Position numbers and translations under genes: made by a program. From an uncultured Clostridia bacterium (GTDB lineage Bacteria; Bacillota; Clostridia; TANB77; CAG-508): a stretch of DNA of 64,000 nt. The stretch's first letter is position 1. The number at the start of each line of letters is the position of its first letter. The stretch covers positions 9,633 to 73,632 of the forward strand of contig CALXKD010000004.1 in NCBI GenBank assembly GCA_944388795.1, given 5' to 3'. Positions 50,759 to 52,330 of this stretch are shown piece by piece. Below the pieces are notes generated by a model. That model ran no database searches and was not told the DNA's origin. It worked only from the letters and a program-made list of their open reading frames with translations.

Positions 50759-51223
50759 ATGGCAGAAGACAGAAAAGAGTTCTTGCGGGAACTTAACGCA
50801 ATTTCAAAGAGAATAGAGGAAATATATACTATTCTCGGAGAGGAAAGAGTTATTAAACCTGAAGAGAAAACAGCTCATTCTCAGTACGCTGAACCTCTTG
50901 AAGTAAAGATAACTAAACTCCTGAAAGAATTAGGAGCACCTACAAGCAATATGGGGTTTGGATACATCCGGGAGGCTATCATTTTATGTATGGAGGATCC
51001 TACGATTTTTAACGGAGGTATTACCAATATCCTGTATCCCGCGATAGCAGAAAAATTTGGAACTACTACGTCACGTGTAGAACGTGCAATAAGACATGAG
51101 AAAGAAATTATCTTTAGCAGAGGTAATACTGAATTCGTTAATGAACTTTTTCCATATTACATGGGGAAGGCAACAAATTCAGAGTTTCTAGCTACTCTTG
51201 TTGAATATTTAAGAGCGAATTAA
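50759..51223 (+). CDS. Receiver-less Spo0A C-terminal (DNA-binding) domain protein, paralog 1
   Basis: ITKLLKELGAPTSNMGFGYIREAIILCMEDPTIFNGGITNILYPAIAEKFGTTTSRVERAIRHEKEIIFSRGNTEFVNELF...KATNSEFLATLVEYLR follows the Spo0A effector domain (I...LHE.GVPAH.KGY.YLREAI......L...ITK.LYP.IA.KF.TT.SRVERAIRHAIEVAW..G......LFG......KPTNSEFIA). A ~45-aa helical N-terminus replaces the receiver domain. Confidence 0.88.
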   Translation: MAEDRKEFLRELNAISKRIEEIYTILGEERVIKPEEKTAHSQYAEPLEVKITKLLKELGAPTSNMGFGYIREAIILCMEDPTIFNGGITNILYPAIAEKFGTTTSRVERAIRHEKEIIFSRGNTEFVNELFPYYMGKATNSEFLATLVEYLRAN

Positions 51224-51238
51224 ATTTTCTGTCAGGGA

Positions 51239-51270
51239 ATAAGCACCATCCATTATGGGGGTGCTTTTCC
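51239..51270 (+). terminator. Terminator of Spo0A-C paralog 1
   Basis: aagcacc atccattatggg ggtgctt ttcc. Confidence 0.6.
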
Positions 51271-51371
51271 TATTGTAAAATATAATATAAAAGTTATTAT
51301 GATTCAAATTTTGAAATAATAACGGAATGTCTTGTAATGAATAAAATATACAAGCTAACAAATACCGTAAA

Positions 51372-51400
51372 TTGACATTATGTAAAGAAAAGCGTATAAT
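51372..51400 (+). promoter_or_regulatory. SigmaA-type promoter of Spo0A-C paralogs 2-3 (duplicate of 50678-50706)
   Basis: TTGACA (51372-51377), 17-nt spacer, TATAAT (51395-51400). Confidence 0.7.
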
Positions 51401-51444
51401 TAAGGTATCTGGGAAAAATCCTGGAAAAAGAAAGGAGTATAAAA

Positions 51445-51852
51445 ATGACAGAAACAAAAGAAGAACTAATTAGGGAGGTTATGCAGATGAAAGAACGGAT
51501 TGAGGAAATCTTCAATCAATTAGGGGTGAATTCTGAGGAAGAGAGTAAAGATATCGAAGAATATCTGAAGCAGCTGGGAATTTTTCCCGACAGATTAGGG
51601 TATACATATTTAAAAATGGCAATTGAAATATGTATGAAAAAATCAGGAGTACGGATATGTAAGGATGTATATCCTGAGATTGCTAAAAAATACCATACAT
51701 CTTTAGCCTGTGTAGAGAAAAATATGAGAACGGCTATAAATGCTGGGATGACTTATGGTAACAAGAAACTTTATAATGAGATATTTGGTAATGAAAGACC
51801 AACAAATACTAGATTCGTAACAACTTTAGCAGAGAAACTTTCAAGCAATTAA
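51445..51852 (+). CDS. Receiver-less Spo0A-C-like protein, paralog 2 (divergent recognition helix)
   Basis: IEEYLKQLGIFPDRLGYTYLKMAIEICMKK...VYPEIAKKYHTSLACVEKNMRTAINAG...LYNEIFGNERPTNTRFVTTLAEKL has the same fold pattern. The SRVERAIRHAIE helix is replaced by ACVEKNMRTAIN. Confidence 0.75.
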   Translation: MTETKEELIREVMQMKERIEEIFNQLGVNSEEESKDIEEYLKQLGIFPDRLGYTYLKMAIEICMKKSGVRICKDVYPEIAKKYHTSLACVEKNMRTAINAGMTYGNKKLYNEIFGNERPTNTRFVTTLAEKLSSN

Positions 51853-51862
51853 GGAGGACAAA

Positions 51863-52330
51863 ATGAAAAAAGAATTAATTGAGGAAATACATACCATAAT
51901 AAACAGCATGCAACGGATAGCAGAAATATTAGAAGAGGGAGAAGAAACAGTAGATGAAGTTTCTCCTAAAGAGGAGGAATTAACTACAGAGGTCATACCA
52001 AATGAAAAAGAAGTTACACAGCTTATTAAAAAGATGGGTATACCTGCACATTTATTGGGATATAACTACTTAAGAACAGGTATAATGATAGCGTTAGAGA
52101 ATCCTGACGTACTCATGTTAATAACAAAAGAGTTATATCCGCAAATTGCCAAAGTATACAATACAGTGCCTCATCGAGTTGAGCGTGCTATAAGGCATGC
52201 AATAGAAGTCTCGATGTCCAGAATTGACTATGACTTTTATCAGGAGGTTTTTGGAAGTTCAATATCGCCTGATAAAGGAAAACCGACCAATTGGGAATAC
52301 ATATCAGCTCTGGTCGAGTACATTAAGTAA
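51863..52330 (+). CDS. Receiver-less Spo0A C-terminal domain protein, paralog 3
   Basis: VTQLIKKMGIPAHLLGYNYLRTGIMIALENPDVLMLITKELYPQIAKVYNTVPHRVERAIRHAIEVSMSRIDYDFYQEVFG...GKPTNWEYISALVEYI. RBS AAGGAGGA. Starts 10 nt after paralog 2, so the two are probably co-transcribed. Confidence 0.88.
   Translation: MKKELIEEIHTIINSMQRIAEILEEGEETVDEVSPKEEELTTEVIPNEKEVTQLIKKMGIPAHLLGYNYLRTGIMIALENPDVLMLITKELYPQIAKVYNTVPHRVERAIRHAIEVSMSRIDYDFYQEVFGSSISPDKGKPTNWEYISALVEYIK

Follow-up and report, generated by a model that had tools for sequence, protein, structure and literature searches.

A variable chromosomal island of an uncultured Clostridia bacterium encodes receiver-less Spo0A effector-domain proteins beside sigma factor genes

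The window analyzed here is a stretch of 64,000 nucleotides from an uncultured Clostridia bacterium (GenBank assembly GCA_944388795.1, contig CALXKD010000004.1, positions 9,633 to 73,632 of the forward strand). It contains three neighboring genes, named par1, par2 and par3, each of which encodes a Spo0A effector domain (Spo0A_C) without a receiver domain. The window is chromosomal DNA of low guanine-cytosine (GC) content, about 28%, and nearly all of its genes lie on the plus strand. The par genes belong to an island in which a gene for a SpoIIID-like protein and three sigma factor genes, sigma1, sigma2 and sigma3, occupy the minus strand and are followed by par1, par2 and par3 on the plus strand (Table 1). 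Two CmpB-like genes and dpaB flank this island, and the remaining window holds housekeeping and cell-envelope polysaccharide genes. Inspection of the three par open reading frames confirms both the positions and the receiver-less domain content given in a preliminary description of this DNA.

Each par protein matches the Pfam Spo0A_C profile from end to end (positions 1-104 of 104), with E values of 4.2e-27 for par1, 1.7e-24 for par2 and 8.9e-36 for par3. Pfam finds no domain besides Spo0A_C in the three proteins, and the receiver profile (REC, PF00072) is not matched; the residues that precede the effector domain number 34-50. Scores against the Spo0A equivalog model TIGR02875 reach 109.9, 56.1 and 128.9 bits for par1, par2 and par3, respectively, all under the cut-off of 200 bits. 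The solved Spo0A effector domains 1FC3 and 1LQ1 match the three proteins with E values of 4e-24 (par1, with 1FC3), 6e-10 and 4e-26, and the PHROG family phrog_24603 does so with 7e-26, 1e-18 and 6e-19. The peptides singled out in the preliminary description, TTSRVERAIRHEKEI of par1, VPHRVERAIRHAIEV of par3 and SLACVEKNMRTAINAG of par2, are correctly quoted. The KPTN.E(F/Y) tail that it assigned to par1 and par3 is present in par3 (GKPTNWEY), but par1 has Ala rather than Pro (GKATNSEF); par2 reads RPTNTRF.

The N-terminal amphipathic segment described for all three proteins is a genuine shared feature, modeled as a helix in par3 by AlphaFold2 and aligned across 11 family members. In the par3 model, residues 2-25 form a helix (predicted local distance difference test score, pLDDT, about 81), an acidic linker at residues 26-47 is disordered (pLDDT <50) and residues 48-154 adopt a confident Spo0A_C fold (pLDDT >90). 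The 11 homologs, drawn from several strains and species, follow the pattern L-(I/L)-x-E-(I/L)-x-x-(I/M)-x-x-x-(hydrophobic)-x-x-I-x-x-x-L and carry L, I, V or M at 5-6 of the 7 a/d heptad positions. Heptad patterning of this kind is compatible with dimerization. As to the origin of the helix, MAFFT aligns it with receiver helix alpha5, and NCBIfam alignments reach model positions 111-116. An alpha5 profile beats shuffled sequence for par2 alone (0/500, with 25/500 for par1 and 52/500 for par3), the other members are not significant, and a full-length Spo0A hidden Markov model puts the N-terminal helices at inconsistent places. Descent of the helix from alpha5 is thus suggestive, not significant.

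Conservation within the effector domain was compared among 13 family members, 88 canonical Spo0A proteins and 67 receiver-less viral copies, with residues numbered as in Bacillus subtilis Spo0A from the 1LQ1 alignment. As had been proposed, par1 and par3 retain the DNA-recognition residues E213, R214, R217 and H218, and the recognition helix of the window par2 is altered, with K214, T218 and N221. The four residues are retained in 12 of the 13 family members, and the degenerate helix is specific to the window allele of par2; the par2-type copy at the related locus L023 carries an intact SRVERAIRHAIE. The alphaA/alphaF surface departs from canonical Spo0A at positions 257 and 162. Position 257 is V in 11 of the 13 family members, as opposed to A, S or G in 88/88 canonical proteins and never V, and position 162 is K or R in 11/13 family members versus H in 82/88 canonical proteins. 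Both changes occur together in par1 (V257 and K162). D258, invariant in the 88 canonical sequences, is Glu in par1-3, and G227 is Ile in par3. The alphaA/alphaF surface of the family is thus remodeled in a paired way, V257 going with K/R162. Of the 67 receiver-less viral copies, 26 have V, T or I at position 257 and 22 have E at position 258. Across all sequences, K/R162 goes with V/I/T257 (Fisher p 1.7e-7, and p 0.0012 without this family, both values uncorrected for phylogeny).

The par genes are arranged in two transcription units, the second of which is an operon of par2 and par3 with a 10-bp gap and an AGGAGG ribosome-binding site between the two genes. Both promoters, the GTATCTGGGAAAAGTCCTGGAAA leaders and both terminators of the array are near-copies of each other, which indicates that the array arose by duplication of a promoter-gene-terminator unit. 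The leader GTATCTGGGAAAAGTCCTGGAAA is conserved in all alleles and in the sister-species locus L015, although the adjacent open reading frames have synonymous divergence (dS) >1, and is probably an operator. The sigma2 leader contains a related motif, GGAAAAGTCCAGATA (minus strand, about 49556-49570), and an 18-bp palindrome, AATGAGAAAAATCTCATT, sits at 50554-50571 directly downstream of the sigma3 -10 element as a possible operator. In L015 (about 130 bp upstream of its 162-aa gene), L003 (884-1006) and L004 (188-310), a short remnant reading frame begins immediately behind the conserved leader and precedes the par3-type gene. The layout of these loci suggests an ancestral two-gene operon whose first gene was lost repeatedly.

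Table 1. Positions and properties of the island features in the window.
Feature	Position	Strand	Description
par1	50759..51223	+	154 aa; receiver-less Spo0A_C protein (N-terminal helix, linker, effector domain); monocistronic; Pfam Spo0A_C
par2	51445..51852	+	135 aa; receiver-less Spo0A_C protein; recognition helix degenerate; accessory copy; Pfam Spo0A_C
par3	51863..52330	+	155 aa; receiver-less Spo0A_C protein; core copy, always directly upstream of dpaB; Pfam Spo0A_C
par1 promoter TTGACT-17-TATAAT	50678..50706	+	sigma-A type; 11/12 consensus; 95-100% identical across divergent alleles
par1 leader motif GTATCTGGGAAAAGTCCTGGAAA	50711..50733	+	direct repeat CTGGGAAA / CTGGAAA 12 bp apart; candidate operator
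Terminator after par1	51247..51263	+	intrinsic; terminator scan; resembles terminator after par3
par2-par3 operon promoter TTGACA-17-TATAAT	51372..51400	+	12/12 consensus; aligns with par1 promoter and leader
par2-par3 leader motif GTATCTGGGAAAAGTCCTGGAAA	51405..51427	+	same motif as par1 leader
Terminator after par3	52354..52380	+	intrinsic; terminator scan; end of hypervariable block
sigma3	49675..50511	-	sigma-E/K-like, without pro-sequence; lineage-specific C-terminal domain; divergent from par1; hypervariable; Sigma70_r2/r4 matches
sigma2	48623..49504	-	sigma-E-like, without pro-sequence; C-terminal beta-beta-alpha-beta-beta-alpha domain
sigma1	47624..48475	-	sigma-E/K-like paralog, same C-terminal domain; nearly invariant between strains
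SpoIIID-like gene	47201..47470	-	89 aa from ATG at 47470, which has a ribosome-binding site; Pfam SpoIIID E 1e-33
Sigma C-terminal domains	47627-47863, 48626-48871, 49678-49899	-	about 80 aa each; no Pfam match

Comparison of orthologous pairs gives ratios of nonsynonymous to synonymous divergence (dN/dS) of 0.08-0.30, which are rough values since dS is saturated in many of the comparisons. The ratio is 0.18-0.23 for par1 against its other alleles, 0.08-0.16 for par3 and 0.15 for par2 against the par2-type copy of L023, where it falls to 0.12 across the N-terminal helix. The par genes are under purifying selection. Within the species, the proteins of the flanking genes share 96-100% of their residues and dS is 0-0.19 (backbone identity 97-100%), in contrast to 42-65% amino-acid identity and dS of 1.1-2.9 for sigma3 and the par open reading frames. 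The sigma3 protein shares only 55-56% of its amino acids with those of L021 and L025 (dS 1.5-1.9, versus a backbone dS <=0.2), and sigma1 is 96-98% identical between strains. A map of identity in 60-bp steps reveals sharp boundaries, in that coding cassettes fall to 42-77%, the DNA between sigma3 and par1, the leaders and the terminators stay at 95-100%, and identity is back at 98-100% from 52360 onward.

The sigma3 and Spo0A_C block is a set of discrete mosaic allele cassettes within one species. L021 combines sigma3-B, par1-B and par3-B; L025 combines sigma3-B, par1-B and par3-A; and L023 pairs sigma3-A with a par3-B-like copy and a par2 type whose helix is intact, and lacks par1. The number of Spo0A_C genes is 1, 2 or 3, and the par3 type is always present, in synteny in L015, L021, L023 and L025. 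L001 and L002 share an intact and identical par2 frame. In L003 and L004, an in-frame remnant of 40 aa is left of it, and no par2-type open reading frame is called in L021 or L025, where window positions 51580-51820 have no counterpart. The arrangements of L021/L022, L023/L024 and L025-L027 were each recovered from two or three different sequencing samples, which speaks against an assembly artifact. The sister species represented by L015 (backbone dS 0.65-0.9) has the same island at the same position and in the same gene order, with SpoIIID, two sigma factors that carry the C-terminal domain and one 162-aa helix-linker-Spo0A_C gene adjoining dpaB. The linkage of the par genes with the neighboring sigma genes, remarked on from the window, is thus kept in the sister species.

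The three sigma genes are monocistronic, each with an extended -10 promoter of the sigma-A type, and terminator-like hairpins follow sigma1 and sigma3. Their best scores against SigE and SigK models are 137-190 bits versus cut-offs of 252-349 (for sigma2, 190 versus the SigE cut-off of 339). The alignments begin at model positions 25-37, and alignment of the proteins with SigE shows no hydrophobic pro-sequence of the kind that SpoIIGA or SpoIVFB removes from sporulation sigma E and sigma K. The C-terminal domain folds as beta-beta-alpha-beta-beta-alpha in the AlphaFold2 model of sigma2, and in a profile search of 1.84 billion protein representatives all matches to this domain came from this clade. 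A Foldseek search of the PDB with the sigma2 model returned sigma matches only and none for the C-terminal domain. Sigma3 alleles with 55% identity elsewhere are almost identical over the last ~30 residues of the domain. The SpoIIID-like protein scores 107.6 bits against TIGR02844, just under the 111.5 cut-off, and its gene is found at the same place in L015, L022 and L025; by sequence, it could be the genuine spoIIID of the organism. On the other side of the array, dpaB (52476-53054; dipicolinate synthase subunit B, 266 bits) stands alone, and dpaA was not found in the window. Upstream of dpaB, CATATTATA with AC 17 nt further upstream looks by eye like a sigma-K-type promoter.

Two observations concern genes elsewhere in the window. 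A YfhO-family gene is apparently split into overlapping reading frames at 28846-30462 and 30425-31483 (profile positions 3-507 and 507-834), adjoining an intact paralog at 31455-34037, and the split could be a frameshift or a pseudogene. Acetate kinase is encoded by two tandem full-length genes (6159-7352 and 7382-8572) directly after pta.

Receiver-less Spo0A_C proteins are common in metagenomes. Viral contigs hold 170 stretches that encode Spo0A_C, and the best 80 of these comprise 13 full-length proteins, 40 bare domains and 27 with N-terminal extensions, some clearly helical (L088, L093 and L097). On one phage contig, L009, a receiver-less Spo0A_C gene adjoins holin and amidase genes. Cellular settings occur as well. 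In GCA_016852305.1 (L012, 4731-5934), a chromosomal tandem pair of such genes (158 and 182 aa) lies at an unrelated locus, where one neighbor is a Na/Ca exchanger gene and the other is unannotated (in the parallel contig L013, an M18 peptidase). Tandem receiver-less arrays are therefore not unique to this lineage. A JGI 3300042601 contig with 46% GC (L011, 10001-10501) encodes a 166-aa receiver-less protein in a context that looks cellular and not phage, with pyruvate kinase, PGK, TIM, a tRNA synthetase and RuvC. A scan of reference genomes for close relatives returned only canonical, spoIVB-linked Spo0A of unrelated Clostridiales. The best full-length Spo0A matches, P0010 and P0012, lie on 26%-GC contigs and adjoin a hybrid kinase; they were considered as the canonical Spo0A of the same lineage and set aside, as nothing ties them to this genome. 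A neighbor-joining tree of the effector domains was likewise discarded as a guide to origin, its long branches, of which the window par2 is the longest, making it unreliable.

Effector-only spo0A has already been reported in gut phages, for which signal-independent control of sporulation was proposed (Schwartz et al. 2023, PMC10294663), and gut mobile elements reportedly show an enrichment of PF08769 (bioRxiv 10.1101/214213). The preliminary description had allowed that proteins of this architecture might already be functionally described; the architecture is indeed known, but both reports are bioinformatic only, and we found no functional study of receiver-less Spo0A_C proteins in the literature. 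The novelty of the par genes is their setting and not the receiver-less architecture itself.

We read the par proteins as phosphorylation-independent transcription factors of the Spo0A type that would bind 0A-box-type sites as coiled-coil dimers formed by the N-terminal helix. They would be part of a lineage-specific, gate-less set of early sporulation regulators, in which sigma3 and the Spo0A_C genes are swapped as divergent cassettes. We put the chances of this interpretation at about even. The ~23-residue heptad-patterned helix would pair into a coiled-coil homodimer or into heterodimers among the par paralogs. Such a helix dimer would replace the phosphorylation-driven receiver dimer and place two effector domains at paired 0A-box-type sites without phosphorelay input, with the disordered, acidic linker of ~20 residues between helix and effector domain. 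The par3 protein is the conserved core copy, and par1, which shares its recognition residues, is an accessory duplicate. The window par2, with three recognition-helix residues lost, probably no longer reads 0A boxes and would act, if at all, through the shared helix. Expression would depend on the near-consensus sigma-A promoters and then on the invariant leader as the probable operator. Exchange of the sigma3 and Spo0A_C cassettes may take place through recombination within the conserved regulatory DNA that separates them. PMC3485338 summarizes, and shows for Clostridioides difficile, that the Spo0A DNA-binding domain on its own needs no phosphorylation to bind legitimate targets.

From the preliminary proposal of phosphorelay-independent binding and helix-mediated dimerization, the missing receiver, the recognition residues of par1 and par3, the heptad helix and the sigma linkage have stood. 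Dimerization, DNA binding, the targets and the choice between activation and repression are what we infer from the sequences, and several points weigh against our interpretation. The AlphaFold2 model of par3 is a monomer, which cannot show dimerization. The window holds 3 perfect TGTCGAA boxes with 2.4 expected, which is no enrichment, and the intergenic DNA of the island contains none. An active Spo0A effector domain expressed constitutively from sigma-A promoters should be costly, and extra control must therefore be assumed. Finally, the remodeled alphaA/alphaF surface may make the proteins behave differently from Spo0A.

The last of these points leads to a reading in which the par proteins are antagonists of Spo0A that do not activate but sit on 0A boxes or titrate a partner, for example a sigma factor, such that the sporulation threshold is raised or sporulation is blocked, as proposed for phage-borne truncated copies. 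This reading overlaps our interpretation and differs from it only in the sign of regulation. In its favor, recognition residues are retained and the alphaF surface is changed, with Val257 (11/13 members versus 0/88 canonical proteins) and Glu in place of D258 in par1-3; par3 also has Ile at G227. Strong vegetative-type promoters would suit a brake. As summarized in PMC9195935, A257V in B. subtilis abolishes the activation of spoIIA and spoIIG and keeps the repression of abrB. The same summary names H162R as a known suppressor of A257V, and the K/R162 found in 11/13 members is the same type of change. The alphaF surface may thus be compensated and not disabled, which weakens an activation-dead reading of V257. 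In addition, A257V did not abolish sporulation in Paenibacillus polymyxa, according to the account in PMC9195935. We consider antagonism unlikely, though it keeps some real weight.

A second alternative treats the island as domesticated cargo of a phage or other mobile element, a set of genes for sporulation takeover, with hypervariability that stems from conflict between phage and host or from repeated horizontal replacement and not from developmental regulation by the host. All three gene types have PHROG families (phrog_24603 and phrog_37855 for Spo0A_C, phrog_351 for the sigma factors and phrog_11726 for SpoIIID, of the moron or host takeover class), and truncated spo0A, sigma factor and spoIIID genes are typical of gut phages (PMC10294663). 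Of the best 80 viral Spo0A_C stretches, 67 are receiver-less, some with helical N-terminal extensions. The extreme divergence within the species resembles that of accessory islands, and the GC content of the island is slightly above that of its flanks (0.30-0.33 versus 0.25-0.28). The surroundings argue otherwise. No integrase, phage structural, lysis or replication gene lies within the 64 kb, and Rfam at gathering thresholds finds no tRNA or other RNA family there. Position and gene order are identical in the sister species, par3 has no close relative in a single-protein scan of viral contigs, and the sigma C-terminal domain is confined to this clade. Among PADLOC defense models, there is no match for par1-3 or the SpoIIID-like protein, and the sigma factors match only the generic region 2 of MzaA. 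The island is a chromosomal, non-phage, lineage-specific regulatory block, and the cargo reading seems improbable to us.

The cassette structure itself invites a further reading. Polymorphic regulatory loci in which conserved flanks enclose allele cassettes include the comQXP pherotype locus of Bacillus and agr of Staphylococcus. As an analogy only, the present block is similar to them in its divergent regulator alleles, near-identical flanks and mosaic combinations between strains. Unlike comQXP and agr, the block has no evident signaling peptide or receptor and is made up of a sigma factor and effector domains of Spo0A. The block might be a balanced polymorphism of allele-specific regulator cassettes kept by frequency-dependent selection. 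It could, for example, set a developmental compatibility type or serve sporulation as a kin-discrimination switch, or it could supply host decoys to neutralize Spo0A or sigma mimics encoded by phages. Under this reading, the N-terminal helices and the private C-terminal domain of the sigma factors would be allele-specific interaction modules. We regard this proposal as a long shot. Finally, that the extra copies, par2 especially, are decaying duplicates without a function of their own and only the par3-type gene matters could be argued from the par2 remnants of L003 and L004, its missing reading frame in L021 and L025, the remnant frame ahead of the single L015 gene, the lost recognition residues and longest tree branch of the window par2 and the absence of par1 in L023, but it is very improbable in view of the par2 frame kept intact and identical in L001 and L002, its low dN/dS, lowest across the N-terminal helix, and the constraint and near-consensus promoter of par1.

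Receiver-less Spo0A is widespread in gut phages and mobile elements, and none has yet been studied functionally. The par locus is an example that is chromosomal, inherited vertically and maintained by selection, and its proteins have a built-in candidate for a dimerization helix. The par genes and the sigma factors both lack the usual activation gate (for the sigma factors, the pro-sequence), which points to a second copy of the early sporulation regulators that would run in parallel and independently of signals. Within the species, allelic diversity this extreme and this sharply bounded is unusual for core developmental regulators and provides a natural variant set for specificity. The pairing of V257 with K/R162 mirrors classic suppressor genetics of B. 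subtilis.

Spo0A is the textbook phosphorylation-gated developmental switch, and the par proteins resemble it in their complete Spo0A_C fold, in the 42-47% identity of par3 to the aligned canonical effector domains and in the recognition helix SRVERAIRHAIEV, which is essentially intact in par1 and par3. Unlike Spo0A, they have no receiver and no phospho-acceptor, with a coiled-coil-type helix and a disordered linker instead; their genes occur in 1-3 hypervariable copies, and V257 and K/R162 replace A/S257 and H162. A functional analogy may be drawn to constitutive Spo0A of the sad67 type and to the isolated DNA-binding domain, in which removal of the receiver leads to phosphorylation-independent DNA binding and activation. 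In contrast to such laboratory constructs, which have no dedicated dimerization helix, the par proteins carry a natural, conserved N-terminal helix and a different alphaA/alphaF surface. The truncated spo0A of phages (phrog_24603) is similar in being effector domain only, with helical N-terminal extensions in some copies and shared shifts at positions 257 and 258. Unlike the phage copies, the par genes adjoin no phage gene, are chromosomal and syntenic across species, and are paired with sigma factors of the host lineage.

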